64,000 bases of DNA from a virus, in the UHGV virus genome UHGV-0178594. One strand, 5' to 3'. A model generated the notes under the pieces. The model saw only the letters and a program-made list of their open reading frames with translations, had not been told where the DNA came from and ran no database searches. How positions within the stretch are numbered: the first letter of the stretch is position 1; each line of letters starts with the position of its first letter. Both the position numbers and the translations under genes were made by a program. Positions 42,533-62,512 of this stretch are shown here, in pieces.

Positions 42533-45500
42533 TTAGGCCGCATCGGCGATTATTTTACGCAGTTCATCTAACGAGTAACGCGTAGATACCATCCATGCAG
42601 GACGGTCAAAGTTCACATCAGCAACCGGGTTTGCTTCAAAATTCCAGAAACGCCCGCCAATCTTCTTAATCGCGTCTTTGGCGTTCCGTATTGTCGAGGA
42701 ACCAGGTTGGTCGGCAATGAGATAAACCGCACCGACGTCCTCGCTGACACTCCACCAGCGCCCGCGAACACGCGCCTTAGCGCGAATCGGCTTATCATTA
42801 ACCACAATGATATAGTCATCATTCGCCGCTTCATCAGCTCTTGCTTCAGCCACTGCCGCCTGCTCTTCTCTTTTGCTTTCAGCCTGTTCAAGCCTTTCCG
42901 CGATCTCTGATTCGGTGGCCCCGCCGTTTTTCAGCGATACATAGTCTTGCCACGTTGCTGATTTGAGCGCATCCGGCAACTCATTCACATAGTCACCGTC
43001 TTTCAACTCACGGGCGCGGCGGGTAGCCATTTCTACCAGGCGATTAACAGAAACAGCATCAGCAAAATCGTCCTTACTAATGTGTTTTTCATCAAATGCA
43101 TTGATGACAGCCCCCACCTTAATCCACTGTGATGCCGGTGATTCCAGGGGGTTATCAGCCTGGACTATGGCGAGTTTCGCTCCATCTACCCCATTATTCG
43201 CCAACTGTTCCAATGCCGCCCATCCATCTGCATCACTGAGTGATTTATATTGCTCAAACAATGCATCGCGCCAGGCCACCAGCGCAGAACGTGTTTTTTC
43301 GATCTTCGTCTTAATTTTGGCGATCTTGACCTGATTAAACATCCGTTCAATATCATCGATATTGCTAAAGGCTTTCATTCTGCCCTTGAATAAACGGTAT
43401 GCCAGCACGGTCCTCCAGAATGATTCCAGACCTTCTCCGGACGGTTTGCGGAACAAGCTAAGAATATCTTCAGAAGTGACTTTATTAAGCGAACGACCTG
43501 ACAGACCACGCCCAGCCATCCAGTTTTCGAACTCCTGGACAACATCATCCATCGTTGCCTGTGCGCCCCATGCCTGCATTCCCTGGATGTAATCATACCC
43601 ATACAATGCCTGGAGGAATCCCTCGCCGTCCACGATATTCAGCGGGTTATCACTGGCTTGTATTTTTGCCACTTCACGCTTCAGCGCCTCATCGTTGCCA
43701 TCTGGATATATCCATCGTTCAGGTGCTATATCCGATGCTCGCCCGATTTTTTGGCCTATCACGCCATCATAGGCCGATGACAGCGCGATCTGACCATCAT
43801 CTGTGCGATATGCCCAGTATTTAATAGCTGACCCACCGCCCCATGCATTACCAGGTTTACCAGCAATAACATTCATTACCCCATTGCGAATAGCATCATA
43901 GAACTGATCGCGAGTAAGTATTGTTGATAGCTGGTGGCACTGAACACCACGCGCAGCCGTTGCGCGCGATTCAGCTACCCCCTCTTCAAAAGTTACCGCT
44001 TCAATCACAGAGTCAAACGGCAATGTAACGATTGACCCCGGTGATCGAGCGTAACGACTTGCTCTATCCAGCCAGGCGATACGGCAGAGGTATTGTGCTT
44101 TTTCACCGTCAATTTTTTCCACCCGGACAATCGCTGTTGTTTCGCGATCATCAATGACTGCACGGTAATAACTACCTTTATGCAACAGGATATTCTTGTC
44201 AGTGCGCATATATTCCTGTGGGTTCTGAATAACATCGATACTGATATCCAGCACACCAGACTTAATAGCGCGCTCCACATCACCACGAGAGCGTTTCATT
44301 ATGGTATCCGCGTCTTTTGCCCTGGTGATCGCAAACCGCAGCACCCGCGCACGTTTTCTGTAGCTACTCAACTGCTCAAGCGCGAATTTTTGCCCATTCC
44401 TGTTCGTACCCGCTTTTATCAGGTCGTCAAGATTGCGCTGGTAATACTCTATCTGTTCCATCGCGCTTTTCAGTTCTGTCTCCATCATGCCGATATCTTT
44501 TCCGGCGGCGTTTGCCGCTTTCAGGTAGATATCGAGAGCATTGTTGGCCTCGCGCTGTGCTTTCAGTTTCAGACGTTCTTCACGCTCTTGCGCCTGGCGA
44601 GCCATGATTGCGCGGCGTTCTTCCGGGTTTGCCGCCAGCATAATAGCGCGTTCATCAGCATCATCCGCATCACCATTGGCGATCTCTGACATGTCGGAGG
44701 TCATCACCATCTTGATCCAGTCTTTCTTACGTTTCAGCGTATCCAGACGGAAGTCGTCGAATGTGCCTTTGCCACAATAGTAGTGAACATTGACCTTCTC
44801 TTGCGGTGAACCTACGCGCGCACCGCGCCCATTTCGTTGGTCGATACTGGCTGGTGTCCAGGGTAGTGTCAGGTGGTGGATATCGGTTGTCCCGATATGC
44901 AGGTTAATACCTACTTCAGCCTTCTTGTTACAGATAATGATGCGCGTGCGCCCTTCGTTATAGTCGGCGGCAATGCCTTCCATACCCTCAAGGCCAGCAT
45001 CATTTTTAGCTGAGAGATAATCCTCATATTGGGCAAGTTTGCTGTAGTAGGTTTCCCATGCCCCTTCTTTGTATTCACCGTTTTTATTCGGAGTAGGTTC
45101 AGTCGGCTTATTCACCTTCTTCAGCTTGATGCCGCCAGCCTGGCTAACGGTCGTCGCATTGATAATGCCTATCTCCTGCTCCGGCATTTGCAGTGCACTG
45201 GCGATAATACGGCGCAGCTTCTGGTGCTGGGCTTTTTCATCAATGAAGACAATTTGTTTACCGTTCTTCAGACCTTCACGAAGGTTTTCGATCAGCGCGG
45301 CATACTTCGGCGGGATGGGGTGTGATACCTGCTGCAGATCAATCCCGGCGGCAGCAATGGCCTTCAGTATTTCAGCTTCCAGTTCAATGCTGGCACGTAT
45401 TTCAACATGCGCCGGATGTTCACTAAAGGTGGTCTTCACTACCTTACTGGTGCGCGTACTAACCAGCCCACCAGCGCCGTCTTCTTCGGCCTCGTCTGCA

Positions 45501-48500
45501 TCATCTGCCACTTTACCGCCAGCTACTTTTGGCAGGGCATCAGCAATAGCTTTTACCTTGTCTGCAAGCTCAACGGGGAACTGGAATGTAATCGCACTGG
45601 CATACAGATCCGGATCTATAGCAACCTTATCCATGTCGCGGATGATGGAGAAGATGAAATCATCCGGTTTTTCGTTTGTGATATGCCCGTTTTCATCAAC
45701 CGTCAGCGCATCTTTACTACTTAACTCCTGTGCACGCTTACGAAGCTCTTCATAAGCAGCCTCCTGCTCCCCTGTCATCGGGATCTGCAAGGTATTCTCG
45801 ACAATATCAGGGATTTTAACCGTCGCCCCGACGTCCGCAGCAGTCTTCAGAGTAGTCCAGCGATGGAAAATACCACGCAGGCCATCAAGGTTCTGGAAGC
45901 CAACCAGCCCCTGCTTCTCTTCCACTTCCCCGGAAATTTTCTGGACCTGAACTGTGGCTGTTTTACCAAACACACGAACGAAATCATCAGGCGTAATGAT
46001 GCCCATGCGCATCCACTCTTCCTGCGGAATGACAGTAGACAGCATGTTGAAGGCATCAATCGGACTGTTCACCAGCGGTGTTGCCGTCAGCATGACTACA
46101 CCACGCCCGTTGTTGCGTTTCATCATGTACGCAGCTTTTACAGCCATGTCGCGGGCCATCTTGGATACTGCCGGGTTAGGCAAATATGCCAGTTGTCCCG
46201 CTTCACGCCCGGCATTAAAGGAGTTGCGGTAGTTATGCCCCTCGTCGGCAATCACGCTATCGAAGTTCATATCCTCAAAGTACGGGATATTCTGCTTCTT
46301 CGTTGTACCGGTATTCGCGGCCTGATCCTTAATCTTGTTCTTCTTCTGCGCATCACGGTGTTTACCAGACGCCAGGTCAAGACGCCCCATTTCCACAGCA
46401 TTAAAGACAGCTTGCTGTGAGTTCTCCTCGATGGTTTTTTCTCGTAGCGGGATAGACGCGAATTGTTCTTTTGTCATGATGACCGTTCGCCAATTTGACG
46501 ACGGGATCATGTTCATGCGCTGAACGATAACGGCGCTGGCGGACTCTTTCACAACATTTCTGGTAAGAGGCTGCCCGTTACTGTCGAGGCGGGGTTCGCC
46601 ATTTTCATCAAGCACCGGCGCGGTCAGAATATTGCCGTCTTCATCACGAACTTCATCCAGACCGATAAACATCATATTTGCGAAGGCATCAGCACTGTAG
46701 AAGCTCTGTGCCTCGTGATACCAGTTCTGATAAACCGCCTTCGGAACAACAATACACGTGCGTTTAGTGCGACCTGTTTCGAAGTTATACGCCTCAAGCG
46801 CAAGCGCGGTCGTGGTTTTACCCAGCCCGGTACCAAATCCCATGATGCCGCGCCCATCTTCTGACAAGCGACGAACTTCTTCATTCTGATAAGTCAGAGG
46901 AATGCGCTTTCCACTAATCCCTTCCAGGCCAAGCGGTGCGTTAGAGTGCGTGAACGGAATGAAGCCATTGAATGCGTCGTTATAGTCACGGGCTATCTGA
47001 TCCGCCTGCGGGTGGGTGCGTAACCAGTCGTTAAAGCTAACTTCCAGTTGAGCAATTTTATCCAAGTACTCGTTAGCGTTCTGCCCACGCGGTTTAACAC
47101 CGTTCAGGTAGTTTTCTAACTGGTTCAGGAAGCCGTCTTTATTGTTGGCCTTCTTGAACTCATTCCCGTTTTTGCCGTTTACGGTTCGTAGTTGATAGCC
47201 GGTAAATACCCCGTCCTTACCTTCGTAATCGTCCGGAGATACCAGAATGCCATCGACGACCTTCAGATCAGGTTCAGTGTACTTAAACTCGTCATAGCCC
47301 TGCTCTGCCAGGAACTCTTTTATCAAGCGGCGATCCAGCCAGCGGGCGTTCAGATTAACGGTGACTTTATTTAGTGGCGTGAAAATGCGTTTCTCTTCGA
47401 TTTTCGCCAACTGACGCTCAAAGTTCGCTTTCTGCTCACCTGTTGACGCATCACGCCAACCCACCAGCAATGTTGTTTTGGTTGCAATATCGCCGCTGGT
47501 GGCGCGGTCCATCGGCAGCAGGCAGCCATACCCATCAATAGCGATATCATCAAATTTCGCCAGGTATTCAAGGGCCGCGTCGTCGTCCTCTGGCAGTTCA
47601 CCAGCAAACGCCTCACGAAAGTCGCCCAGCGTTATAGGATTAAGGGCTACATCACTGAAAAGATGTGCTATCACTTGTTCAGGACGTGTAAAGTCAATAC
47701 CGGCAGCACCATCCGTTACATCAAGTCGCCCTGCCAGAAGGTCAGAAGTGGAACCATCCTGTTTCACATTGCCAGTGAACGTCATCCAGTTTTTAGCGCC
47801 AGCTTCAGCAAGCCCATTCAGCTTAATCGCGTGCGGTGGTCCATACTTCGCAACTTCTGCTGCCGCCAGGCGGGATGCATCTGCCAGTTTGTCATCAACG
47901 TTCACCCCCAGGTTACGCAAATCAAGTGCCTTGTTGATCAACTGCCCTATCAACGCACCGCGCATAACGCGCTCCCTGTCTTTTTCTCGCTGTTTGCCAG
48001 CAAAGCGAATCATTGCTGCCACTTCATCACTGACAACCGATGGATAGTCGGACGCGATCGCCGATATCTGGTCCCATGACAAAGCCAGAATCCCGTTTGT
48101 TGACTGGAACGCGATCTGCAGATCGCCAAACGTCGAAACACCATATCGACTTACATCAAGCGCGGAGGATTTGGTTGTCGTGTCCTTAACCCATTTCAGA
48201 CCATCAAACTCATGCCAGATACCGCCTACAAGGCGTTTATCGCCCACTTTCGCGCCCTGCCATGCCTGGGTAGTTACTCCGAGCAAATCCCAATTAATAC
48301 GGCTTTCAAAGCGGCGTGATAACGCGGTTTTCATCGACTCATTGGATACACGACCGTCCTTTTTCACCACCAGGGTATTGCGGAAGCTGGTGCGTTCCAT
48401 GTCGCCGTAAACAAATCGCTTCCCTTCGGTTGTAAACCATTTCCCTTTGAGGAAGGTATCCCAAAGGACGTTTGCCGATTTGAGCGTTGCATCATCCGTG

Positions 48501-49384
48501 TCGGGGATCATCTCCAGGAAGGTTTCCGGGTGTTTACGCAATACCCATACGTCCACCACCGTATCTGTACCGGATTCGCTGAACGTACCAGAAGGCATAC
48601 GATGCGCGCCCAAAAATTCCGCTTTACGGCTGACTTTATCGCGCAATTTTTTGTATTTCGTACCATCGGTCATGCCATTCGGCACCACCAATACAATTAG
48701 TCCACCAGGCTTAACCTTGTCGATTGTGCGCAGCACAAAGTAATTGCCAACGTTCTTCTCGTTTGCATATGCCGGATCAAGCCCGGCGACACCGGAACGC
48801 CCTTCACCAAACGGTACGTTACCAACAGCGTGATCATACATTGCGTCTTTCGCCGCCAGCGCCTCAAACGCCCCGATATTCACATCGTCTTCCGGGTGCA
48901 AAAGCTGGTTTATTCGACCGGAAATCGGAGACAGTTCGGCGCTGGTCATTATCATGCCCTGCCGTTTTGTCTCCTGGAAAATACCTGTGCCCGCTGATGG
49001 TTCCAGTACGTGCCCGCCATCAATACCGTAGTCAGCAAACAGATCCCATATACCTTCAGCCATAAACTGTGGCGTGTAGTATTCGTATTGGCTGCCCTCA
49101 CCATCTGTCAGGCCGCCTTCACCGGTATACCCGGCAAGAATCTGACGTTGTGCGTCAGTTAATTTCGCCCCATCGAAGCCGGGCGGAAGGGAATTAAGAA
49201 GATTTACTGCGGCGTTGTTTGCTGCCCGGCGTGTTTTCTGAATACTGACGCCATCGACTTTCTTAACGCCAAAGGTCACTACAGCTCGCGGTTTATGCAA
49301 CCGACTAACAATTTCAATCAGCGCCCCAATGCTGGTGGCCTGGCTAATTGAATCAATTATTTTGTCCAAAGGAAGCCCCCTCAA
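42533..49384 (-). CDS. DarB-like anti-restriction protein: N6-adenine methyltransferase fused to SF2 helicase
   Basis: 2283 aa (P1 DarB is of similar size as I recall); MTase motifs EPSAGTGIF and GNVPFG; helicase motifs GTGLGKTT, DEGHNYRN, LTATPLVNSP. Confidence 0.75.
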   Translation of the reverse strand: MRGLPLDKIIDSISQATSIGALIEIVSRLHKPRAVVTFGVKKVDGVSIQKTRRAANNAAVNLLNSLPPGFDGAKLTDAQRQILAGYTGEGGLTDGEGSQYEYYTPQFMAEGIWDLFADYGIDGGHVLEPSAGTGIFQETKRQGMIMTSAELSPISGRINQLLHPEDDVNIGAFEALAAKDAMYDHAVGNVPFGEGRSGVAGLDPAYANEKNVGNYFVLRTIDKVKPGGLIVLVVPNGMTDGTKYKKLRDKVSRKAEFLGAHRMPSGTFSESGTDTVVDVWVLRKHPETFLEMIPDTDDATLKSANVLWDTFLKGKWFTTEGKRFVYGDMERTSFRNTLVVKKDGRVSNESMKTALSRRFESRINWDLLGVTTQAWQGAKVGDKRLVGGIWHEFDGLKWVKDTTTKSSALDVSRYGVSTFGDLQIAFQSTNGILALSWDQISAIASDYPSVVSDEVAAMIRFAGKQREKDRERVMRGALIGQLINKALDLRNLGVNVDDKLADASRLAAAEVAKYGPPHAIKLNGLAEAGAKNWMTFTGNVKQDGSTSDLLAGRLDVTDGAAGIDFTRPEQVIAHLFSDVALNPITLGDFREAFAGELPEDDDAALEYLAKFDDIAIDGYGCLLPMDRATSGDIATKTTLLVGWRDASTGEQKANFERQLAKIEEKRIFTPLNKVTVNLNARWLDRRLIKEFLAEQGYDEFKYTEPDLKVVDGILVSPDDYEGKDGVFTGYQLRTVNGKNGNEFKKANNKDGFLNQLENYLNGVKPRGQNANEYLDKIAQLEVSFNDWLRTHPQADQIARDYNDAFNGFIPFTHSNAPLGLEGISGKRIPLTYQNEEVRRLSEDGRGIMGFGTGLGKTTTALALEAYNFETGRTKRTCIVVPKAVYQNWYHEAQSFYSADAFANMMFIGLDEVRDEDGNILTAPVLDENGEPRLDSNGQPLTRNVVKESASAVIVQRMNMIPSSNWRTVIMTKEQFASIPLREKTIEENSQQAVFNAVEMGRLDLASGKHRDAQKKNKIKDQAANTGTTKKQNIPYFEDMNFDSVIADEGHNYRNSFNAGREAGQLAYLPNPAVSKMARDMAVKAAYMMKRNNGRGVVMLTATPLVNSPIDAFNMLSTVIPQEEWMRMGIITPDDFVRVFGKTATVQVQKISGEVEEKQGLVGFQNLDGLRGIFHRWTTLKTAADVGATVKIPDIVENTLQIPMTGEQEAAYEELRKRAQELSSKDALTVDENGHITNEKPDDFIFSIIRDMDKVAIDPDLYASAITFQFPVELADKVKAIADALPKVAGGKVADDADEAEEDGAGGLVSTRTSKVVKTTFSEHPAHVEIRASIELEAEILKAIAAAGIDLQQVSHPIPPKYAALIENLREGLKNGKQIVFIDEKAQHQKLRRIIASALQMPEQEIGIINATTVSQAGGIKLKKVNKPTEPTPNKNGEYKEGAWETYYSKLAQYEDYLSAKNDAGLEGMEGIAADYNEGRTRIIICNKKAEVGINLHIGTTDIHHLTLPWTPASIDQRNGRGARVGSPQEKVNVHYYCGKGTFDDFRLDTLKRKKDWIKMVMTSDMSEIANGDADDADERAIMLAANPEERRAIMARQAQEREERLKLKAQREANNALDIYLKAANAAGKDIGMMETELKSAMEQIEYYQRNLDDLIKAGTNRNGQKFALEQLSSYRKRARVLRFAITRAKDADTIMKRSRGDVERAIKSGVLDISIDVIQNPQEYMRTDKNILLHKGSYYRAVIDDRETTAIVRVEKIDGEKAQYLCRIAWLDRASRYARSPGSIVTLPFDSVIEAVTFEEGVAESRATAARGVQCHQLSTILTRDQFYDAIRNGVMNVIAGKPGNAWGGGSAIKYWAYRTDDGQIALSSAYDGVIGQKIGRASDIAPERWIYPDGNDEALKREVAKIQASDNPLNIVDGEGFLQALYGYDYIQGMQAWGAQATMDDVVQEFENWMAGRGLSGRSLNKVTSEDILSLFRKPSGEGLESFWRTVLAYRLFKGRMKAFSNIDDIERMFNQVKIAKIKTKIEKTRSALVAWRDALFEQYKSLSDADGWAALEQLANNGVDGAKLAIVQADNPLESPASQWIKVGAVINAFDEKHISKDDFADAVSVNRLVEMATRRARELKDGDYVNELPDALKSATWQDYVSLKNGGATESEIAERLEQAESKREEQAAVAEARADEAANDDYIIVVNDKPIRAKARVRGRWWSVSEDVGAVYLIADQPGSSTIRNAKDAIKKIGGRFWNFEANPVADVNFDRPAWMVSTRYSLDELRKIIADAA

Positions 49385-49521
49385 AACCGTTAAATCCGCC
49401 TTAAGCGGTTCGGTTTGAGAGGGTATGGAGAATGTTATTTTCAGGGATGAACGACACTACCGTCAAAATCACATACTCACCATAGTTTGCCTACTTATTA
49501 ACCCATGAGCGGGAGAAATAT

Positions 49522-50007
49522 ATGGCAAACATTGAACCTCGCTGGCTTATTGAGGCCCGTAAAAATATTGGAGTCACCGAAATAAAAGGAGCGAAACACA
49601 ATCCAGAGATCGTTCAGTTCTGGCGGGATATTAAGCGCAGCGGAATTAAAGACGACGAAACGCCGTGGTGCGCTGCATTTGTTGGTGCAATGCTGGAACG
49701 TGTAGGTATCCGCTCAACAAGATTTGAGTCGGCAAAATCCTATCTGGATTGGGGCGAGAAATTAGATACACCGGCATACGGATGTATCGTTGTATTTACC
49801 CGCGTAGGCGGTGGGCACGTAGGCTTCGTTGTCGGACACCGCGCCAATGGCGATCTGCTTGTCTTGGGTGGGAACCAGGGGGATGCTGTTAATATTCGCG
49901 CATTCCCAACATCAAGAGTGTCTGGCTATCGCTGGCCTGCTGGCGAACCACGCAATACAGCTCTGTTACCAGTCGGAGACGCAGCAACCTCAACTAATGA
50001 GGCATAA
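49522..50007 (+). CDS. putative cysteine peptidase / cell-wall hydrolase (CHAP or NlpC/P60-like)
   Basis: Candidate catalytic Cys (TPWCAAFV) and His (GGGHVGFVV) spacing; 161 aa. Confidence 0.4.
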   Translation: MANIEPRWLIEARKNIGVTEIKGAKHNPEIVQFWRDIKRSGIKDDETPWCAAFVGAMLERVGIRSTRFESAKSYLDWGEKLDTPAYGCIVVFTRVGGGHVGFVVGHRANGDLLVLGGNQGDAVNIRAFPTSRVSGYRWPAGEPRNTALLPVGDAATSTNEA

Positions 50008-50030
50008 AAAAGCCCCGGCCAAGCCGGGGC
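50005..50030 (-). terminator. rho-independent terminator (minus-strand reading)
   Basis: gccccggc-caa-gccggggc hairpin next to A7 on plus strand. Confidence 0.6.
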
Positions 50031-50038
50031 ATCACACT

Positions 50039-50251
50039 TCAAGTTACGATCCAATCATTACCGACTGCATCCGCCGTCGATAAATCGACTTCCCGGATCT
50101 GGTATCCATTAATACAAAACCATCCAGTAGTAGAGCTATTATCAGGCCAGACCCATACACCAACACTCCATGCTTTACGGCGGCACACTTCAGCCTGTCC
50201 TTCCCTGATTTTTTTTACCGCCTGCATGATGTCCATCACTCGCCTCCCCAA
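50039..50251 (-). CDS. DUF2829-like small protein (separate ORF here, fused to antirepressor in left copy)
   Basis: ...EVCRRKAWSVGVWVWPD...DWIVT; 16-nt overlap with upstream antirepressor ORF. Confidence 0.45.
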   Translation of the reverse strand: MGRRVMDIMQAVKKIREGQAEVCRRKAWSVGVWVWPDNSSTTGWFCINGYQIREVDLSTADAVGNDWIVT

Positions 50252-50943
50252 CCGATTACCTGGAATTGCCCCATCCTTGGGTGATACCAGCGTTTTCCTC
50301 GGTGTTCAGCCTCCGACATCATCAGGGTAAAGGCATTCATGAAGGGAGATAAGGCCACAATAGTACGACGCGACAATACCCCCTCTGGCGTCAAAAACTC
50401 ATGCGTATCTGTGGGGATCCGGTAAGCGTTGACCAGGTTACGGCATTTGGCTTCAGTCAGGCCGCATTTCGCCGCCAGTTGGCGGTAGCCAATGTAGCCT
50501 TCTGGTATGTTGCCTTTCTTGATCTGCTCGACGGTTTCAGCGACCTGGCTAACCTTTGACTCAACAGCATGAAGCCGCTTTTGCTGCTGAACTGCATTCG
50601 CAGCCATTGCAGCGATCATCTCTATTTCGGTCAACGGCTGGCGTACTTGTTCTTCCAGTTCGCGCCAGCGGTCCACCAGCCGGGCGGTGAATTCGGGAGA
50701 GAGCTGCGCAACGACAATAATGCTGTCTCGTTTGCCTTGCTCGCCTTCGAAGACGTAAGCCTCAACGCCACGACGCAATCCTAAGTTATTGATTTTTTCG
50801 AAAACAGCCATTGGCGGTTTTCGGATAATGCTTCGAGCAACCATACGCTCAATACTACGTTTAACGTCAGAGTGTTGACTTCCCACCAGCTCCGCAATCT
50901 CAATGCTGGTCATTGATAGTTTTTCGAGAATGCAGATATCCAT
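50236..50943 (-). CDS. antirepressor-like protein (Rha/Bro-N-type)
   Basis: Paralog of 8832..9758 N-terminal 230 aa; ~90% identical DNA stretches. Confidence 0.6.
   Translation of the reverse strand: MDICILEKLSMTSIEIAELVGSQHSDVKRSIERMVARSIIRKPPMAVFEKINNLGLRRGVEAYVFEGEQGKRDSIIVVAQLSPEFTARLVDRWRELEEQVRQPLTEIEMIAAMAANAVQQQKRLHAVESKVSQVAETVEQIKKGNIPEGYIGYRQLAAKCGLTEAKCRNLVNAYRIPTDTHEFLTPEGVLSRRTIVALSPFMNAFTLMMSEAEHRGKRWYHPRMGQFQVIGWGGE
50390..50760. repeat. ~0.4-kb direct repeat (right copy) inside antirepressor gene
   Basis: See left copy; same orientation, ~41 kb apart. Confidence 0.7.
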
Positions 50944-51167
50944 CAGTGAGCCTCCGCAATGCCGGGATTGGTAATATTGCGATACCAGGGATTAGTGTTT
51001 GGTTGTGGGGAAGTAGAGAAACGACCAGTGAGAACGCCATACTGATCAGGGATCAGAGAACGGGCTTCTTTTTCAGTTGCGGCAATTGCGAAGTGATCAC
51101 AATGTTTTTGCAGGGAGTGGAAACGCCAGATGAATTCTGGACGTGAGCAATGATTGGCATTAACCAT
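50943..51167 (-). CDS. Icd-like small protein
   Basis: Paralog of 9758..9973; ATGA-coupled to antirepressor. Confidence 0.4.
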   Translation of the reverse strand: MVNANHCSRPEFIWRFHSLQKHCDHFAIAATEKEARSLIPDQYGVLTGRFSTSPQPNTNPWYRNITNPGIAEAH

Positions 51168-51494: not shown

Positions 51495-51526
51495 TGATTA
51501 GAAACATCAATTTAATTTTCTAACAT
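51495..51526. promoter_or_regulatory. palindromic operator candidate (ATTAGAA-N14-TTCTAAC)
   Basis: Between RepL-like gene and icd-ant module. Confidence 0.5.
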
Positions 51527-53740: not shown

Positions 53741-53753
53741 TATTTCCCTCCGG

Positions 53754-55439
53754 TTAATTATTGCTCATCACAAATTTTGCAAAGTTGATTAATTGTTCTT
53801 GCGTCCAGTTTTCCGGATCGTCACCGGACGACAACGGCGCGGATTCGTACATACCATGCTCGTTGTTTTGCTCTGATTCATTCGCCTTAAACTCTTGGAT
53901 CATTACGTTGAGAGTGTCATCGTCGATACGAAGCTGTTCGGTGAACAGATAACGCATAAACGCGTCGCTACCCGCCAGTTTCGGGTTGTTCTGGATCTGG
54001 TCCATTATTTGCGAGATGACAGCTACGAAGTTGGCGCGCGCATCCAGCTCTCGGTTTTCCTCTTCCTGGATAGCTGTGTTCATTGAGTTGAATTGCACGT
54101 CATAAGGACGGTTTTTTTCGGTGTAAACCTTCCCGTATTTATAAGCGAGGTGAATGTCATGAAGCCGATAAATAGTCCGCTGGGCGGCCTGTCTGATCCA
54201 GTTCGCGCGTAAGGCGGCCTGGATAGCTGTTTGCTGCCAACCGCCTTCTCCAAGTCCACCACTCATCTGATCAGCCCAGCCAAGCATTGTTGCGTCAATA
54301 CCGAGGCTTGCCGCGAGCTGTCGGAGATGAAACATAACGTCTTCGATACCACTGATATCTGCGGGTATAGATTGCGTATCAATGGTGATCCCGTTCTTCC
54401 CATCCCCCATGACGGGTATCAGATGGTTAAGTACAGATGGGAGAGCATTAGAATTAATCGACCGTTGCGCTACGAGGTCGCTATGACGCTTCAGTGCCTG
54501 GCTGACCCCGCGCGTATAATTCGCCGCGTTTACCGGATCTATCGTGTTCGTTGTGAGTGCAATCAGGCGATCAATTTTTGCAGCGTTGTTTCGCGTTGCT
54601 TTCAGCGCAGCAAGCGCGGCACATAAATTCAGGTAGGGTTCATAACTGTATTCAAGAAACGACGTACCGTAGTTCTGCGTCTCCATTAACGGCTTGTCCT
54701 GCTGTTCACTAAGCAAGGAATAGCCTTTAGTGCCGTAAGTTACTGGCATTACTTTATGCTGAGGCGTCCAGTACGGGTTTTTCATGGAAACCAGATTCCA
54801 CGGTTCGGTTATAACTCTGCGCAAAGTATGCGTATCCAGAATATAATCACCGCTGAATCCGACAAGTTGGCTACCGCGATAAAACTCCTGAACGAAATGA
54901 GGGAGCGTGTAATAGCTCGACTCAATTCCAGTTATCCCCTTCCCTTGCTCTGCATATGGACGAATATAAGACACACCGAAAATAGCCATGATCATGGCCC
55001 ACGATGGCAGGCCATCATTAATCATTGAGCTTAAATCAGCGGTCAATTCCTCACATCGACTTACAGCCTCCTTATCCGCCCCATTTTTCGGAGAGAGAAT
55101 AAATGCGAGGCCTGTTTTTTTTGATGGAGCCAGAGAATGCGCAATGTGAATGTTTAATGCTGTGGAGATAGTCGGACTTTTCGCCATCGTCTCCAGTATG
55201 TTGTATTTTTGCAGGCGGTCACTCGGTAATTCTGCCGATATAGATACAGTATCCGCCGCGCTTGTCATGCCATCGCTATTGCTCCCCAGGATGCCAGGAC
55301 GCAAGGCGGACAGGCCAGAACGAGCAACGACGCTATGCCCGCTCGCAAATACGACCGGATCGGCAGGCGTAACATCACCACCGCTGAAGGCTTTCTTCAA
55401 TGCCGACAGAAAGCCCTTGTTTTTGTCTTTCGTTGCCAT
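53754..55439 (-). CDS. hypothetical virion protein (possible portal)
   Basis: 561-aa ORF downstream of dar-like operon; size consistent with portal; no motif confirmed. Confidence 0.35.
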   Translation of the reverse strand: MATKDKNKGFLSALKKAFSGGDVTPADPVVFASGHSVVARSGLSALRPGILGSNSDGMTSAADTVSISAELPSDRLQKYNILETMAKSPTISTALNIHIAHSLAPSKKTGLAFILSPKNGADKEAVSRCEELTADLSSMINDGLPSWAMIMAIFGVSYIRPYAEQGKGITGIESSYYTLPHFVQEFYRGSQLVGFSGDYILDTHTLRRVITEPWNLVSMKNPYWTPQHKVMPVTYGTKGYSLLSEQQDKPLMETQNYGTSFLEYSYEPYLNLCAALAALKATRNNAAKIDRLIALTTNTIDPVNAANYTRGVSQALKRHSDLVAQRSINSNALPSVLNHLIPVMGDGKNGITIDTQSIPADISGIEDVMFHLRQLAASLGIDATMLGWADQMSGGLGEGGWQQTAIQAALRANWIRQAAQRTIYRLHDIHLAYKYGKVYTEKNRPYDVQFNSMNTAIQEEENRELDARANFVAVISQIMDQIQNNPKLAGSDAFMRYLFTEQLRIDDDTLNVMIQEFKANESEQNNEHGMYESAPLSSGDDPENWTQEQLINFAKFVMSNN

Positions 55440-55671
55440 GATTCACCGCAAAAGGTTTCCGATTTCGTGGCAGCTTATCCAGTGTGTGATTTCATCAGTA
55501 ATTTTTCGTTGTTTTCACCATATGCTGATGTTTTTTCATATGCGGAAATGCTTTTCCAAAAACGCAACCACCAAACAAGGAAGTTATGTTTATAAACATT
55601 TTTGTTGTGTTTTATATCTTTTGTGTTAGTATTCTTATCGCCCATGATGGATAAATTGCATAAGGAAACTT

Positions 55672-55854
55672 GTGAAGTATTCAGAGTTCAAACGCTGGTT
55701 AATCCAGCAAGGGGCAGAGTTCAGGAAAGCGCCTGGTGGCGGCAGTCATCAGAAAGTGAACCTGAACGGAAAGCGGTCGGTTTTCCCGGACCACGGTTCA
55801 AAGGAAATGCCTGAACCGCTACGCAAGAAAATAATGAAGGACCTGGGGCTTTAA
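55672..55854 (+). CDS. hicA: HicA toxin (mRNA interferase)
   Basis: MKYSEFKRWLIQQGAEFRK...GSHQK...LRKKIMKDLGL closely matches HicA family. Confidence 0.8.
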   Translation: MKYSEFKRWLIQQGAEFRKAPGGGSHQKVNLNGKRSVFPDHGSKEMPEPLRKKIMKDLGL

Positions 55855-55884
55855 GCCCCAGCCTTTTTCACTAGGAGCTTCTCT

Positions 55885-56316
55885 ATGTTTAACTATCCGG
55901 TAAAACTGGAGCGCGACGACAAAACCGGCGCGTATGTCGTATCATGCCGCGACCTACCATTGTTTAATTCCGTGGGTGACTCAGTTGAAGAAGCGTTGCT
56001 TGAGGCTGGTTATGGATTGGTCGCAGCGGTTGCGATTGAGATTGAAGAACGCCGACCTGTTCCCACTGGTAGCGAGCCAAAAGAAGGTGAGTACGTTGTC
56101 TCTTTGCCAGTGCTACCAGCAATGAAGGCTGCACTCCACAACGCGATGATAGAAACCGGCACACGCAAAGCAGAGTTGGCGCGCAAACTCGGAAAAAATG
56201 GAACACAGATTGATCGTCTTCTCGACGTCGAACATTCATCGAAAGTTGAAACTGTCGAGCTGGCACTGCATCAACTGAATAAAAATATCGTCGTATCTGT
56301 CACACCAATGCGGTGA
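55885..56316 (+). CDS. hicB: HicB antitoxin
   Basis: 143 aa directly downstream of hicA; N-terminal RNase H-like segment (YPV.LERDDKTGAYVVSCRDLP) plus C-terminal HTH-like region. Confidence 0.75.
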   Translation: MFNYPVKLERDDKTGAYVVSCRDLPLFNSVGDSVEEALLEAGYGLVAAVAIEIEERRPVPTGSEPKEGEYVVSLPVLPAMKAALHNAMIETGTRKAELARKLGKNGTQIDRLLDVEHSSKVETVELALHQLNKNIVVSVTPMR

Positions 56317-56427
56317 CTGCTCCCCGCCCTGCTGGGCGAGGATTTACGGGGTATTTGTTAAAAACGCTCTATTCAAAGAAGAAATACCGAATCCCCCGGA
56401 GGTTATCCGGGGTGTCCGGTCGCCAGG

Positions 56428-57813
56428 TCAGGTTTCCAGCCCAAAATCGCTTTGTTCTGTTTTGGCTTCGAACATCGTGAAGTTAAGCCCTTTCCCCTCT
56501 CCATGTTCCAGTTCAATCTCATTAGAAACAGCGGTCAAAATACTACGTAGATCGACATCTCCACCGCCGAACATATCGCCCAACGCCTGCTGTTTATGAA
56601 TCAGTTCGTCGTTGATTTTTTGTGCCATTTTTTTGAATGCAGCCCCCATGCGCTTCGCGCTTCGATTATTTGCCACGATGAATAGCGCCAACGCCTCAGC
56701 TTCCGGCGTGCTATCACCGAAGAGTCCGCGCTGGGCTATCACCTCTTCCACTGCCTGACCGTTGTCTTTGGCTTCACGAACAAGGTTAATCGCGTCCTGG
56801 AGTGCTGCTATAGCCTGTTTATCCAGACCGTTCACCTGCTCTATACCATCAACCAGACCAGTTACAGCATCATGATGTGCATCGCCAGAAATCGACTGCA
56901 TTTGCGCAAAGTCACTGGCCGCTGTATTAAGCGCGGTCAGGATATTGCGCATTTCCGGATCCGGTTCTTCCGCCACAAGCCGAACAAGTCGCTCATCCTT
57001 ATAGGCTTTGGCAAAAATCGCATTCTGAATGCGATCGATAAGCTGTTTCGTTGGACGTCCATCGGCTGTAAGCAAACCTGCCGTCGCGGTATCGCCTATT
57101 TCGTGCAAAAACGCACGAATAAACGCATCATTGGACCGCGCCAGTAGATTTCCATCATCTGAAGGATTAAATAGCGCCATGACGCTCTCAGTGAGAAATT
57201 GCGCATCCGCATACGCTTTCTCACTTGCAGCCATCTCTTGCAGATCGCTGATGTTTGAGTCGCGTGCAAATTGAGCACGATCAACGTCAGTGAGGCGCTC
57301 GCGAACCAGTACAGGCATCACCATTGCCCTGACGTCTTCGGGATTAAGGCCAAACTCTTTAGCGTGATCGATAAGATATTGTCGGTAATCTTCAGCCTGC
57401 CCTTGTTCATAAGCACGCCAGATTCCCATGCTTCGACCATTACCAGACTCAACGACATTATCCGGACCAACAATCGGGGAACCATGACTACTCATACCCG
57501 AATCAGTGAGTTGTGCCGGGCGTAAATTGGCGGCGATACGGTTAACCTGGAGCTTACTTGACAGTCGGGTGCGATCGCGAGGCTGGAGTTCCTCCGGAAA
57601 TGACGGATTTATACTTCCGTCCAGGTTGTTAGAAATGATGAGCTTTTTGGCATCAATAACCTTGAACGCTGTTTTAACTTCGTCGCCTTTGCTGGTGACG
57701 ACATAGCTGCTACGCCCCAACTTCGTCTCTTGCTTTTCAAGAGATGACACCACAGCGATAACCCCCTCAATGTTCGCTGCGGCCAGAAGTGCTGATGTTA
57801 CGTTTTGAGTCAC
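56428..57813 (-). CDS. dar-operon protein (DdrB-like position)
   Basis: 461-aa ORF last in lydA-lydB-hdf-darA-like operon; positional assignment only. Confidence 0.4.
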   Translation of the reverse strand: MTQNVTSALLAAANIEGVIAVVSSLEKQETKLGRSSYVVTSKGDEVKTAFKVIDAKKLIISNNLDGSINPSFPEELQPRDRTRLSSKLQVNRIAANLRPAQLTDSGMSSHGSPIVGPDNVVESGNGRSMGIWRAYEQGQAEDYRQYLIDHAKEFGLNPEDVRAMVMPVLVRERLTDVDRAQFARDSNISDLQEMAASEKAYADAQFLTESVMALFNPSDDGNLLARSNDAFIRAFLHEIGDTATAGLLTADGRPTKQLIDRIQNAIFAKAYKDERLVRLVAEEPDPEMRNILTALNTAASDFAQMQSISGDAHHDAVTGLVDGIEQVNGLDKQAIAALQDAINLVREAKDNGQAVEEVIAQRGLFGDSTPEAEALALFIVANNRSAKRMGAAFKKMAQKINDELIHKQQALGDMFGGGDVDLRSILTAVSNEIELEHGEGKGLNFTMFEAKTEQSDFGLET

Positions 57814-57904
57814 AATTAACCACCTTTCTGTAAAAAAGGCAGTGTAAAAAGTGTGTTATTTCGGTGACTATTTTAAGAAGAAAGGGGCATTTTGCCCCTC
57901 TCTT

Positions 57905-58276
57905 TTACGCTGCATACCCGTTAGCTGAAACCCAGTTTACGGTCTGTTCTTTGGCCTGGTCGAGTGTCAAAAATTCACCAACATATTGAGATATGCCTCT
58001 CAAAGCATCGATGAACTCCATTTGTGATGATTTAGTAAATGCACCACTAAGGAAGTCAGCAACAATTTTAGGCGTTTCTTGTGCCGCCGGTTGCACTTCC
58101 TCTTCTTGCTGTTGTGCTGGATTATTCGATGAACCAAGCCCCAGCTTCATCATCACTTCAACTATCCGCACGCCAATAGTGACACGTTGTACCGCAGTCG
58201 CGCTTTTTTGCGCTGACATCAGCTCAGACAGTTCTTTGCCTAAGCTAAGGCGCTCCGTTACTGATATTTTCACCAC
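57905..58276 (-). CDS. DdrA-like small protein (positional)
   Basis: 123-aa ORF coupled to DarA-like gene. Confidence 0.4.
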   Translation of the reverse strand: MVKISVTERLSLGKELSELMSAQKSATAVQRVTIGVRIVEVMMKLGLGSSNNPAQQQEEEVQPAAQETPKIVADFLSGAFTKSSQMEFIDALRGISQYVGEFLTLDQAKEQTVNWVSANGYAA

Positions 58277-60222
58277 ACGCCCCCTTGTTGTATCTCTGCC
58301 AGAATGTTGATCAGGTGATCGGCTGCCGCACCAACAAGTGACTCGTTCTCATCATATCGACCTGCGTTGATAAGAACATTAGCTGCCTCCTGAATGCGAT
58401 CAAACTCCGCTCTAATCACCGTCAAATCACGGGACGTAAACTGCAACGGCACGGATTTCAGATATTCCAGCGCACTGTCCGCCTCCTGATCAGCCTCACT
58501 AACTACTGGCCCATCTGAACCTGTATCAGACTCTTGGGGGGATTCAGGTTCAGACTCAGGTTCTGGTTCTTGTACTGCTTCCGGTGCCTGATCTAATGTC
58601 TGTTCAGCTTCGACTACTTCTGATTGATTCTGAAGCGCGTCATAGATATCCATTATAAAAAGGTTCTCCCCATCTCCAAGTGGATAAGCGACGTTAGGAA
58701 ATGCTTTGCGGAAGAGGATTTTTATCTGCGCCTTAAAGGTTTTCAAGTCGCTTCCAAACAGATCAACGTAGCCATCAATATGGTTCGACATACTGGACGC
58801 AACCAATTCGCCTGCAATCTCTTTCAATTCATCGTCACCAGGGAGATATAGCAACTCGTACTGACTGACTTCTTCGTCTGTCAGTTTGCGGTCATACGTA
58901 ATGATTCCGTGACGAGCATATTCGTAATACGGATCAGCCTGATCAGGACGGTCAAGTACAGCTTTATTTCCTTCAGGAACCGCACCAACACCCGCCGGGC
59001 GAGATTGGAGCGCATAGCGATATTTACCAACCTCCAGGGGATCAGGATGTGATGCTGGTTGTGGCTCCTGTTCAGGCTGCGGCTGATCAGTTGGCTCAGG
59101 CTGGCCCGGCAACACATCCACTTTGTATTGATCAGCATTATGTTCACGATAGGCTTTAAGTAATTTGGTTGCAGCGTCCGCTGAACTCCCACCTTTAACA
59201 GCACTGACATCAATACTGAAATTGCCTTCTGGTGCCTCAATCGTGACAAAGCTATCACTGCCTGACGTGACATACTTAACTACAGCACCATTATCCAGCG
59301 TTGTTTGGCCTTCTGTAGCAAGATTATGTTTTATGTGTCGCAGTTGATCATTGAAGGCACGCTCTTTAGTTCCTTGGCTCTTAGCTGACAATAAATTATC
59401 GCGCTTAGCCTGCAATTCCGCGTTAAGGGCTTTTTGTGCGTCTAATTTATTCTGCATATCATTGAGTGTTGAGCGTTTCTCTGCCAGCCCCCGCTGTGCG
59501 TCTTCAACCTGCTCAATCAGCACAGAACGTTCTTCTGCCAGCTTGTCGGCTTCATTGAGATACCCCTCAATATCAGCCTTCATTTTGTCCTGGCGCTCCT
59601 TTGCTTTTTTGAATTTTGCACTGTTACGCTCAATGAGGTTAGAAAGCGCCTGACACACCTGGCTCAGAGATACATCACGCCCACCGATTGGCGCAACAAC
59701 ATGCGTAACGTTTCTTTTGTTAAGAAGAAACTGAAACGCAACCAGCTCGTCATCCCCTTTAATTCTTGTGCCGTCTGCGGTTGGAGAATGGAAAATTATG
59801 CTTGTCGTTTGTCCATCGGTTAGAGGTATTTGTGCTGTTACAACAGGGATATTAGCAACCCGGCGCACGCGCCCAATGATTGCCCCACCGATACTATTAC
59901 GTCCGTCTTCATATTCACCTGCCTCATCCGTACCCGCAGCAATGTCAGTGCCATTCAGGCCGCGATTAAGCGCCCGGACAAATGCTCGCATTGTTTGCGC
60001 TAACCGCAATTTTGTTGTGGTTATAGCTTCGAACATTGCCTCATTGGTAGTTACCAAAATTTCGTTGCCCATATAGGCCAGCTCGATATCTTCCAGCGTC
60101 GCAGGCTCGATAAGTAAATCATCCTCGGTGATATCTTCCGCCACCCAACGATTAGGCGTATATCCAGTGAGCGTATCTGCAAAAGTGGACTGGATATTTA
60201 TTCGAATAGGTTTCTTTATCAT
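58270..60222 (-). CDS. DarA-like capsid-internal anti-restriction protein
   Basis: 650 aa (P1 DarA ~639 aa as I recall); operon order lydA-lydB-hdf-darA mirrors P1. Confidence 0.5.
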   Translation of the reverse strand: MIKKPIRINIQSTFADTLTGYTPNRWVAEDITEDDLLIEPATLEDIELAYMGNEILVTTNEAMFEAITTTKLRLAQTMRAFVRALNRGLNGTDIAAGTDEAGEYEDGRNSIGGAIIGRVRRVANIPVVTAQIPLTDGQTTSIIFHSPTADGTRIKGDDELVAFQFLLNKRNVTHVVAPIGGRDVSLSQVCQALSNLIERNSAKFKKAKERQDKMKADIEGYLNEADKLAEERSVLIEQVEDAQRGLAEKRSTLNDMQNKLDAQKALNAELQAKRDNLLSAKSQGTKERAFNDQLRHIKHNLATEGQTTLDNGAVVKYVTSGSDSFVTIEAPEGNFSIDVSAVKGGSSADAATKLLKAYREHNADQYKVDVLPGQPEPTDQPQPEQEPQPASHPDPLEVGKYRYALQSRPAGVGAVPEGNKAVLDRPDQADPYYEYARHGIITYDRKLTDEEVSQYELLYLPGDDELKEIAGELVASSMSNHIDGYVDLFGSDLKTFKAQIKILFRKAFPNVAYPLGDGENLFIMDIYDALQNQSEVVEAEQTLDQAPEAVQEPEPESEPESPQESDTGSDGPVVSEADQEADSALEYLKSVPLQFTSRDLTVIRAEFDRIQEAANVLINAGRYDENESLVGAAADHLINILAEIQQGGVW

Positions 60223-60836
60223 GCATCTTCCTCCAGGCGCGCTATTTCTTCTTTCAATACGCGAGTTTTCGCCAGTTCCTGCGCCATCTCGGTTCTAATG
60301 ATTTCAGTTTCTCTTGTTGCGCGGTCTGAATTACCTTGCACCTGATTTAATTTTTCTTTGGCCCTTTCAATATCCTCGCGGATCGCATCGCGAGATTCCT
60401 TTGCCTCTGCTAGTTTCTGCGCATTGGACTTAACGCCTTTTATTTTCTTATTCCCATCATCAATATCTTTCGCCGCACGAGCTAACTTACGCGCCAATGA
60501 TTTCTGAAATGATGATGCGCCTTTATTAAATAAAGCAGCCAGTGATTGCCCTAAAGCCATCAGCGTTTTAACTGGCTTGAAAGGAACAATTTTTCCGTTC
60601 AGTTTTACACCAGAAATATCACCAGTATCATTAACCTGAACGTCCATCGTCTGCTCATCGATTCCGATAAGGGTAAACGTGCGCGTCATGATCCCGTCTT
60701 TCTTCCTGCCATTACTGGCGGGGATCACCCTCGCTATCTTGTAGCCTCCTTTACCGATTTCTTTGACGAGTTTTGCCAGCCCCTTTTCGTTTAACTCATC
60801 ATAATTAAGAAGAACATAATTAGACTTATTTGACAT
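60219..60836 (-). CDS. Hdf-like protein (positional)
   Basis: ORF between lydB-like and darA-like genes; start taken at internal ATG (MSNKSNY). Confidence 0.4.
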   Translation of the reverse strand: MSNKSNYVLLNYDELNEKGLAKLVKEIGKGGYKIARVIPASNGRKKDGIMTRTFTLIGIDEQTMDVQVNDTGDISGVKLNGKIVPFKPVKTLMALGQSLAALFNKGASSFQKSLARKLARAAKDIDDGNKKIKGVKSNAQKLAEAKESRDAIREDIERAKEKLNQVQGNSDRATRETEIIRTEMAQELAKTRVLKEEIARLEEDA

Positions 60837-61272
60837 TCCAGTCTCCTTCACACTTTTCAATCATAAACTGGCGTTCTATGCAGTCATTGATAGGGAAAAT
60901 GCGATAAAGCGGATTCAGGCGGCAATTACCGTTAGTCAATGTGACCTTTAGATCCCACTTCGCTGGCTCAAGATATTTCGTGTCGATGAGCAAATATTCT
61001 TCTCTCTCACCGCGTTTTGATGCGTCAACTGGTCTTGTTTTCCCCGAAATAACCACAGATGGATTTTTCAAGTCCTGCAACCAATATTCGATTTGTGCAT
61101 TGCTTACCCAGCTTCGCTTAACGCGAAGCGACACAGGAAACGCTATAGCAGACTCTTTCACTACAGCTTCGCCAATGCTCAAAATATCAACACTCTTGCG
61201 ACGAAATAAGAAACGGTCAATAACGGCAACAAATGCCATGATAAAAATGAAATAATTTCCAAAGTCACCCAT
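60826..61272 (-). CDS. LydB-like antiholin (positional)
   Basis: 148 aa, ATGA-coupled downstream of holin-like gene. Confidence 0.45.
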   Translation of the reverse strand: MGDFGNYFIFIMAFVAVIDRFLFRRKSVDILSIGEAVVKESAIAFPVSLRVKRSWVSNAQIEYWLQDLKNPSVVISGKTRPVDASKRGEREEYLLIDTKYLEPAKWDLKVTLTNGNCRLNPLYRIFPINDCIERQFMIEKCEGDWNVK

Positions 61273-61598
61273 TACTTCTCTCCACCTTTTCCCCCACTCG
61301 CTATTACGCTTAAGAGATTCAAGACGTTACTAGCTCTGGACTTCAAGCCCTGTAAAATTTCACTTCCGTTGTTACTGGCAATCAGAACAACGCAGTAAAT
61401 GATGCCTTCCGGCCATTCATAGCTATCAGCCACCCAAAACCCCGCAAGCCCGGCAGTTACCGCAGTAAACAATTCACTCGCGAGGTTGAGCAGTGACGCA
61501 GAAATGCGCCCGTCTCTAACTCCGAGAAGGAATACGCCGGTTCCACTCAGCAGGGATGTTATGACTGCTACAGCCAGATTTTCATAATCTGCAAACAT
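61272..61598 (-). CDS. holin (LydA-like)
   Basis: 108 aa with hydrophobic helices AVAVITSLLSGTGVFLLGV, LASELFTAVTAGLAGFWV, IIYCVVLIA. Confidence 0.5.
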   Translation of the reverse strand: MFADYENLAVAVITSLLSGTGVFLLGVRDGRISASLLNLASELFTAVTAGLAGFWVADSYEWPEGIIYCVVLIASNNGSEILQGLKSRASNVLNLLSVIASGGKGGEK

Positions 61599-62481: not shown

Positions 62482-62512
62482 TTAAGCACCTTCATTCTAA
62501 TTAACTATATTT

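Follow-up and report, generated by a model that had tools for sequence, protein, structure and literature searches.

The region at positions 42533-61598 very probably holds the Dar, head and lysis genes of an Escherichia coli phage-plasmid from the D6-like subgroup P1-g2; these gene products would act as in phage P1. It is part of a window (the whole stretch of DNA that was analysed) of approximately 64 kb out of an element of approximately 91 kb. It was observed directly that the genes are present and intact, in which order they lie, which domains and conserved motifs they encode, and that the window is collinear with D6.

Relationship to phage D6 and to deposited plasmids

The blastn alignment of the 64-kb window with phage D6 (records NC_050154 / MF356679; NC_050154 was used) was monotonic; it covered 51.4 kb, in which the nucleotide identity was 74-94%. 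Neither inversions nor translocations relative to D6 were detected by this alignment across the whole window. Positions 42533-61598 share 90% identity with D6 across 94% of the region length. Furthermore, an exact copy of the 32-bp D6 rox site was detected at 30871-30902 of the window. The rox sequence, reportedly given by Sauer & McDermott 2004, is consistent with the half-sites of rox given in the D6 record. D6-like elements are characterised by Dre and rox in place of Cre/lox, and the predicted recombinase of the Dre type (29690-30718) shows 94% identity to orf118 of D6, which is Dre, the homologue of Cre, and 42% identity to P1 Cre (tblastn).

The sequence-only reading of this DNA had described the gene order as rearranged relative to P1 and the element as a distinct P1-like lineage. 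A gene map based on tblastn searches agrees with the shifted positions of ref, cre, repL and the immI modules: prt-pro is inverted with respect to darB, repL and a c4-icd-ant module are located between darB and the darA operon, and ref lies apart from cre. With backbone proteins 35-60% identical to those of P1 the element is indeed not P1 proper; however, it is D6-like and not new. The “rearranged” order is the order of D6 and P1-g2, and the loss of cin is the only genuine departure from D6 among the rearrangements that had been pointed out. The sequence-only reading had stated that it would be refuted if the element proved highly collinear with a P1-like genome already described, and D6 shows such collinearity throughout the 64-kb window.

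The several differences in gene order from P1, the divergent backbone and the missing cin might nevertheless be taken to indicate a new, undescribed P1-like lineage with a rearranged genome. Taking into account the collinearity with D6, the exact rox site and the recombinase most similar to orf118, and furthermore that plasmids of approximately 99.5% identity have been deposited and that D6-like elements are defined in the literature as subgroup P1-g2 of the phage-plasmids (Pfeifer et al. 2021, PMC7969092), this appears highly improbable.

The closest deposited sequences are the E. coli plasmids NZ_CP104667.1 (strain 2021CK-00607) and pEco_23-2678-3 (NZ_JBYRJZ010000003.1), both with 99.4-99.5% nucleotide identity across 22-24 kb; for the region itself the identity was 99.4-99.6%. 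The former contains genes for a RepB-family replication initiator and for ParM/StbA partition proteins, which are located outside the window. In D6-like phage-plasmids such genes lie apart from one another and take the place of RepA/ParAB of P1. According to these sequence comparisons the lineage of the element is already known and near-identical plasmids are already public. The gene order of D6 and P1-g2 is found in the literature as well, in Pfeifer et al. 2021 and reportedly in the work of Gilcrease and Casjens from 2018. Of 5426 complete E. coli genomes, about 100 contained the lydA-to-ddrB operon, which was plasmid-borne every time. The region is correctly labelled as Dar, head and lysis genes from a phage-plasmid of the D6-like type (P1-g2) rather than as a new lineage.

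The two dar operons

Both the DarB-like giant protein and the six-gene operon proposed from the sequence were confirmed as open reading frames with P1 homology and Pfam domains. The Dar set of the P1 type is complete, as had been claimed, comprising eight homologues of P1 Dar and Lyd proteins including Ulx, which are full-length in comparison to D6.

The darB homologue (42533-49384, minus strand) encodes a predicted internal head protein, a methyltransferase combined with a SNF2-type helicase, in a maximal open reading frame of 2283 aa. Translation likely starts at the second TTG at 49369, which is preceded by the Shine-Dalgarno sequence GAGGGGG and would result in a protein of 2278 aa, the length annotated in D6. 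Pfam domains were assigned to residues 157-287 (N6_Mtase, with a score barely past the cut-off, 20.6 versus 20.4 bits), 831-1052 (SNF2-rel_dom/ResIII) and 1469-1525 (Helicase_C). The protein shares 43% identity with P1 DarB along 2001 aa (E=0) and 98% with D6 orf15. The methyltransferase motifs LEPSAGTG and GNVPFG, the Walker A motif GLGKT as well as ADEG and QRNGRGAR are common to the P1 protein. No convincing alignment to P1 was obtained for the last approximately 340 residues; the alignable part includes the N-terminal region, which is the site of the capsid-targeting signal in P1.

Directly 3' of darB, as in P1 and D6, and just beyond the edge of 42533-61598, the ulx homologue was identified (42062-42496, minus strand, 144 aa), whose product is 47% identical to P1 Ulx and 98% identical to D6 orf14 at the amino acid level. 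In P1, Ulx helps the capsid localisation of DarB (PMC12810830, PMC9024508). An open reading frame of 86 aa following ulx (41799-42059) was considered as a homologue of Lxc/Bof; it was rejected, as BLASTP revealed no similarity.

The combination of N6-methyltransferase and SNF2/ResIII helicase domains, together with a RefSeq name which is just “SNF2-related protein”, would also be compatible with a restriction or defence enzyme of the lysogen (type ISP- or BREX-like) instead of an injected anti-restriction protein. However, the orthology to P1 DarB covers 2001 aa including the N-terminal targeting region, the neighbouring gene is ulx as in P1, and neither a nuclease domain nor partner defence genes were found in the Pfam scans. 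A defence enzyme therefore seems very unlikely, and the protein is regarded as DarB.

The six-gene operon (56428-61598, minus strand) follows the P1 order lydA-lydB-hdf-darA-ddrA-ddrB, and its products share 34-64% identity with those of P1 (E 1e-25 to 0). The holin gene lydA (61272-61598, minus strand) encodes a protein with 41% identity to P1 and 94% to D6, whose match to Phage_holin_3_3 remains under the cut-off (20.5 versus 28.4 bits). The holin antagonist encoded by lydB (60826-61272, minus strand; Pfam LydB 1.5e-24) is 34% identical to P1 and 94% to D6. The DarA-related hdf homologue (60219-60860, minus strand; Pfam DarA_N 7e-18) shows 40% identity to P1 Hdf and 80% to D6; its start is probably located near 60836, which would give about 205 aa. 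The darA homologue (58270-60222, minus strand) encodes a predicted internal head protein of 650 aa with the Pfam domains DarA_N (8e-40) and DarA_C (4e-19) and with 40% identity to P1 and 78% to D6; the RefSeq name of an identical protein is “antirestriction phage head protein DarA”. The ddrA homologue (57905-58276, minus strand, 123 aa) is 37% identical to P1 DdrA and 66% to D6 orf26. The ddrB homologue (56428-57813, minus strand, 461 aa; Pfam ddrB-ParB 2.5e-40) represents a short form with 90% identity to D6 orf25. It aligns only to residues 2-442 of P1 DdrB (995 aa) with 64% identity, the C-terminal half being absent, and DdrB of D6 is also short (454 aa).

The ddrA-darA-hdf core (about 57300-60600) represents a rare allele with 66-80% amino acid identity to the common D6 allele, whereas its flanks (lydA/B, ddrB, darB and ulx) show 90-98% identity to D6. 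The divergent allele occurs in a small sub-clade together with the loss of cin and the gain of hicAB. It is conceivable, though rather doubtful, that it alters which type I restriction-modification families are countered or that it co-varies with the capsid shell to which the proteins bind. If this were true, it would mean that in a single lineage of phage-plasmids the injected anti-restriction head proteins diversify in the form of interchangeable cassettes.

Upstream of lydA an AAGTT... box and the sequence TTAAAC resemble P1 LPdar. Exact copies of the 13-nt motif ACTGGATAAGYTG were found only upstream of lydA and prt. The motif is not taken as a general D6-type late promoter, as the number of copies at two mismatches (6 versus 2.4 expected) is not above chance. 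No clear late promoter of the Lpa-dependent P1 type was detected upstream of darB, and a scan of 42100-62090 for consensus promoters and terminators revealed no enrichment in comparison to shuffled sequences.

Genes between the operons and the adjacent tail-fibre region

Divergent from darB, a gene equivalent to D6 orf16 (49522-50007, plus strand) encodes a protein with a CHAP domain (Pfam, E=2e-7), which is named TIGR02594 family protein by RefSeq in the near-identical plasmids and is probably a cell-wall hydrolase. It is followed by a second immI-like module (50236-51420, minus strand), identified by Rfam and Pfam and by the annotation of D6 and the close plasmids. On the minus strand, this module comprises the c4 target sites a1b1 (51368-51420; Rfam c4-a1b1, 55.2 bits), the C4 antisense RNA (51214-51299; Rfam C4, 69.6 bits), icd (50943-51167; annotation of D6 and the close plasmids) and an antirepressor of the Rha/Roi type (50236-50943; Pfam Phage_pRha). 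The predicted repL-like lytic replication initiator (51583-52542, minus strand) shares 28% identity with P1 RepL (tblastn, E=7e-22) and corresponds to D6 orf20, annotated as “lytic replication protein”. The head processing gene pro (52742-53740, minus strand) and the portal gene prt (53754-55439, minus strand) encode proteins with 41% and 48% identity to P1 and 92% and 94% identity to D6, respectively.

The interval separating ddrB from the portal gene contains a type II toxin-antitoxin cassette, consisting of hicA (55672-55854, plus strand; Pfam HicA_toxin 1e-9) and hicB (55885-56316, plus strand; Pfam HicB-like_2 6e-13). It occupies the slot of D6 orf23 and orf24 (DUF4145). The hicAB stretch (55672-56316) does not align to D6 and is common to only few related plasmids.

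On the other side of the lydA-to-ddrB operon, a pseudogene fragment at 61740-61826 (plus strand) represents a remnant of the 5' end of the invertase gene cin, with 70 of 87 nt (80%) matching D6 cin and a 1-nt indel. The remnant is frameshifted, and tblastn covers only residues 11-34 of the 186 residues of Cin. No cix site was detected in the window at up to four mismatches with D6 cixL as query, and no intact cin was found elsewhere in the window or in the other 27 kb of the nearest plasmid. The sequence-only reading had thus correctly noted the lack of cin next to the tail-fibre genes. The latter comprise a tail-fibre assembly chaperone (62059-62481, minus strand; Pfam Caudo_TAP 1e-34) and the C-terminal part of a tail-fibre gene (62513 to beyond 64000, minus strand; Pfam Gp53-like_C 1e-9), the frame of which is still open at 64000 and which is annotated with 1169 aa in pEco_23-2678-3. 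The stretch 62059-64000 is common to only four PLSDB plasmids. The single tail-fibre tip, accompanied by the chaperone, is fixed and non-invertible, whereas both D6 and P1 possess Cin and an invertible segment beside lydA. The missing Cin and invertible segment are a variable accessory trait, compatible with the membership of the element among the D6-like phage-plasmids.

The reduction of cin to a frameshifted 87-nt fragment, the toxin-antitoxin cassette inside the late-gene block and an IS3 element at the site of the sit gene in a near-identical plasmid may indicate a decaying, non-inducible plasmid remnant, whose Dar genes would be relics no longer reaching the virion. Against this, the Dar, head, portal, terminase and lysis open reading frames examined in the window are all full-length in comparison to D6. 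Without cin the phage is not disabled but only locked into one tail-fibre type, and the IS3 belongs to another isolate and to a position beyond the window. Decay is therefore considered unlikely, and we favour a D6-like phage-plasmid with a Dar segment that would act as in P1.

Proposed function and comparison with P1, D6 and related plasmids

The Dar system of P1 with the operons darB-ulx and lydA-lydB-hdf-darA-ddrA-ddrB was reportedly described by Iida in 1987 and by Piya in 2017. By analogy with P1, the lydA-to-ddrB and darB-ulx operons would both be expressed late in the lytic cycle. Hdf and DarA would be the first to enter the procapsid and would be required for the packaging of the other components, followed by DdrA and DdrB. 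DarB, a methyltransferase/helicase of approximately 250 kDa, would enter last, aided by Ulx and guided by its N-terminal capsid-targeting sequence. Upon infection the Dar proteins would presumably be ejected with the DNA and guard any head-packaged DNA from type I restriction-modification, DarA and DdrA acting against EcoA-type and DarB and Ulx against EcoB/EcoK-type enzymes. The roles of the Dar proteins in P1, the order of their incorporation and the N-terminal targeting signal of DarB have been reported previously (PMC12810830, PMC9024508).

In the public annotation of such plasmids most Dar components appear as “hypothetical protein” or “SNF2-related protein”. The homology map is useful for curation owing to this poor naming. 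The traits of the sub-clade may furthermore be used in a population study of the exchange of anti-restriction cassettes and host-range modules among phage-plasmids.

In comparison to P1, all eight Dar/Lyd genes are intact, with equal order within each operon and equal domain content; however, the amino acid identity amounts to 34-64% only. DdrB lacks the C-terminal approximately 535 residues, the C-terminus of DarB cannot be aligned, lydC and cin are absent, and nothing homologous to lxc/bof was detected downstream of ulx. While P1 carries prt-pro-lyz-ssb-isaA-IS1-isaB-hxr between its two dar operons, the CHAP-domain gene, immI, repL, pro-prt in inverted orientation compared with P1, and hicAB are located there in the present element.

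The resemblance to D6 is considerably closer. The D6 record annotates these genes in equal order as homologues of the P1 dar genes, and the gene order throughout the 64 kb, the two c4-icd-ant modules, the position of repL between pro and immI and the short form of DdrB are the same. The amino acid identity reaches 98% for DarB and Ulx, 94% for LydA/LydB and 90% for DdrB, in contrast to 66-80% for the ddrA-darA-hdf core. Differences from D6 further concern the loss of cin and the invertible segment, the other tail-fibre tip, hicAB in place of orf23/orf24, the tRNA set and the replacement of several accessory early genes at 12.6-25.6 kb of the window. Ten accessory open reading frames from those parts of the early region that do not match D6 were scanned with Pfam, which revealed only Ead/Ea22 domains.

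Both hicAB and the cin remnant of the element recur in the plasmids NZ_CP104667.1 and pEco_23-2678-3, along with its type of tail fibre and its allele of the darA operon. Point differences of approximately 0.5% separate these plasmids from the element, most of which lie in the repetitive tail-fibre gene, and pEco_23-2678-3 additionally differs by the IS3 at the site of the sit (tape-measure) gene, a location outside the window. Genuine deviations from D6 are minor, and the traits of the sub-clade, namely the loss of cin, hicAB and the divergent darA core, are ordinary accessory variation.

The anti-restriction genes and their products

The ORF table contained both elements described in the sequence-only reading, a maximal ORF of 2283 aa at 42533-49384 (-) and six ORFs in a row at 56428-61598, all on the minus strand, and their recognition as a P1-type Dar set was borne out by BLASTP homology to P1 proteins together with diagnostic Pfam domains. 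The large ORF represents a darB homologue sharing 43% identity with P1 DarB over 2001 aa (E=0, BLASTP). It is predicted to contain N6_Mtase, SNF2-rel_dom/ResIII and Helicase_C domains (Pfam) and has the methyltransferase motif I LEPSAGTG, the motif-IV-like GNVPFG, the Walker A motif GLGKT, ADEG and QRNGRGAR in common with P1. The second TTG at 49369, preceded by a GAGGGGG ribosome-binding site, is probably the true start, giving 2278 aa as in the published phage-plasmid D6 (Escherichia phage D6, NC_050154). A ulx homologue (47% identity to P1 Ulx, BLASTP) was detected at 42062-42496, just beyond the region covered by the sequence-only reading. DarB and Ulx both share 98% identity with their D6 counterparts (BLASTP).

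The six-ORF run encodes homologues of LydA (41% identity to P1), LydB (34%), Hdf (40%), DarA (40%), DdrA (37%) and DdrB (64%; all BLASTP). According to Pfam, DarA comprises DarA_N and DarA_C domains, Hdf a DarA_N domain and DdrB a ddrB-ParB domain, and LydB belongs to the LydB family. DdrB is half-length, with 461 aa compared to 995 aa in P1, and its alignment with P1 DdrB is confined to the N-terminal 442 residues of the latter.

In P1 six Dar proteins are incorporated stepwise into the head, Hdf and DarA first and required for the others, DarB last; the first 30 residues of DarB suffice for capsid targeting. The proteins exit with the DNA and shield it from type I restriction, DarB and Ulx counteracting EcoB and EcoK, and DarA and DdrA counteracting EcoA (PMC9024508; PMC12810830). 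By analogy, the Dar proteins of the window would be assembled stepwise into the head, ejected with the DNA and protective against type I restriction. An equivalent N-terminal targeting signal in DarB appears plausible since the alignment with P1 DarB starts at the first residues.

Several features hint at the transcription units. Upstream of lydA, an AAGTT-box and TTAAAC resemble the P1 late promoter LPdar, and the 13-nt motif ACTGGATAAGYTG has exact matches upstream of lydA and prt only. The window has precisely two copies of the motif ACA[AC]ACTGGATAAG[CT]TG (55471-55487 and 61630-61646, minus strand), each approximately 30-50 nt upstream of a late-gene start codon (prt, lydA). The motif, which was not seen upstream of darB, may belong to a D6-type late promoter. 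Furthermore, a strong bidirectional hairpin (50012-50030) parts the immI module from darB, and a second hairpin (57883-57899) lies between ddrA and ddrB.

A divergent core and a fixed tail-fibre tip

Nucleotide identity to D6 falls to 51-85% across about 57300-60600 (-), compared to 89-95% in lydA and lydB, and at the protein level to 66% for DdrA, 78% for DarA and 80% for Hdf (BLASTP). This ddrA-darA-hdf core is a rare allele within flanks 90-98% identical to D6. Among complete E. coli genomes the darA operon matched at no less than 99% identity in 14 records and at only 80-90% in 67, while darB reached at least 90% in about 99; the core allele is carried by approximately 14 of the 100 D6-like plasmids of E. 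coli. In PLSDB, six plasmids encode the window's DarA allele (at least 99% at the protein level) and 109 the D6-type allele (approximately 78%). We regard the divergence of the core as cassette-like allelic variation; that it reflects functional diversification of the injected anti-restriction proteins seems rather unlikely.

Directly after lydA, D6 possesses cin, cixL and the invertible S'/U' segment. The absence of cin from the window had been noted correctly: only an 87-nt frameshifted remnant at 61740-61826 (+), matching the beginning of D6 cin at 80% identity with a 1-nt indel, was detected, no cix site was found in the window, and there is no other cin-like gene either in the window or in the other 27 kb of the closest plasmid. 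Instead of the invertible segment, 62059-64000 (-), downstream of the cin remnant, contains one fixed tail-fibre tip plus a single Caudo_TAP chaperone gene (62059-62481, minus strand; domain match); the tail-fibre gene encodes a gp53-like C-terminal domain and extends past the window end at 64000. In PLSDB this arrangement is shared by only four plasmids, and the loss of cin sets apart a sub-clade whose tail-fibre type is fixed.

Accessory regions

Among the late structural genes, between prt and ddrB, a hicA-hicB type II toxin-antitoxin pair (55672-56316, plus strand) occupies the slot where D6 carries orf23/orf24 (DUF4145). Some relatives have a TnpB/IS element somewhere in this region, and the slot appears to be a hot spot for accessory genes. 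Most stretches without alignment to D6 (e.g. 17397-18512, 18777-19963 and 21906-24174) lie in the early/accessory region 12659-25587. In a Pfam scan of ten ORFs from this region, Ead/Ea22 domains were the sole matches, the other ORFs being without family.

Five tRNA genes (Met-CAT, Ser-TGA, Thr-TGT, Tyr-GTA, Arg-TCT) were detected at 36951-37979 (-). Three (Ser, Thr, Asn) are annotated in the D6 record, on the plus strand, although it is the minus strand on which the homologous Thr gene of the window scores; the D6 record may give an incorrect strand.

The near-identical plasmid pEco_23-2678-3, from an African green monkey isolate, carries an IS3-family element at its positions 30143-31356, outside the window, at the place of the sit (tape-measure/transglycosylase) gene and flanked by ORFs resembling two sit fragments. 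This plasmid is unlikely to represent a viable phage.

Gene order in comparison to D6 and P1

The sequence-only reading had proposed a distinct P1-like lineage and named high collinearity with a described P1-like genome as its refutation; the comparison with D6 shows such collinearity. In a megablast search against phage genomes the region under study matched D6 with 90.0% identity over 94% of the query; in all P1/P7-type phages a c4/icd stretch of approximately 390 bp was the sole match. PLSDB contained 96 records covering at least 80% of the region, led by NZ_CP104667.1 (99.6% over 100%). The relevant part of D6 was assembled and the whole window aligned to it by blastn: the alignment is monotonic, starting at D6 position 64825, crossing the record origin and ending near 32700, comprises 51,369 of the 64,000 bases and shows no inversion or translocation across the window. 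A perfect 32-bp rox site, the target of the Dre recombinase, is located at 30871-30902 (+), adjoining a recombinase gene (29690-30718) whose product shares 94% identity with Dre, the Cre homologue encoded by D6 orf118. The D6 GenBank record already shows an identical series of genes, annotated as the P1 homologues ulx, darB, icd, repL, pro, prt, ddrB, ddrA, darA, hdf, lydB and lydA. Judged by its sequence, the element is a member of this already described D6-like lineage, and public databases contain copies nearly identical to it.

D6-like elements form subgroup P1-g2 of the P1 phage-plasmid community, with a mean wGRR (gene-repertoire relatedness) of 0.23 between the two subgroups (PMC7969092; PMC10879196); the P1-g2 literature cites Gilcrease & Casjens (2018) for the description of D6. 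The darA operon was found in 100 of 5426 complete E. coli genomes, on plasmids every time, and the identical DarA protein is already named 'antirestriction phage head protein DarA' in RefSeq.

Two separate c4-icd-antirepressor modules are present, as in D6, at 8832-10238 (-) and 50236-51420 (-). Their C4 RNAs (10028-10115 and 51214-51299) are preceded upstream by an isrK-family match (10160-10238) and a c4-a1b1 target element (51368-51420), respectively. Phd and Doc (26146-26738, plus strand) share 100% and 91% aa identity with their P1 counterparts, compared to 35-60% for backbone proteins, which suggests that the two subgroups recently exchanged this addiction module. Likewise, ppp (15631-16281) shares 85% identity with P1.

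Placing 87 P1 proteins on the window by tblastn confirmed the rearrangement relative to P1. The P1 map has prt-pro, in divergent orientation, after darB, and next lyz, ssb, isaA, IS1, isaB and hxr ahead of ddrB. In contrast, the order down the minus strand of the window is lydA-lydB-hdf-darA-ddrA-ddrB, hicBA (opposite strand), prt-pro, repL, c4-icd-ant, a small ORF, a CHAP-domain gene (opposite strand) and darB-ulx; ref adjoins the first c4-icd-ant module (about 8.8-11.2 kb) and is widely separated from the cre homologue (29.7-30.7 kb). Since this arrangement is exactly that of D6, the rearrangement is a trait of the known lineage and not of the element in the window.
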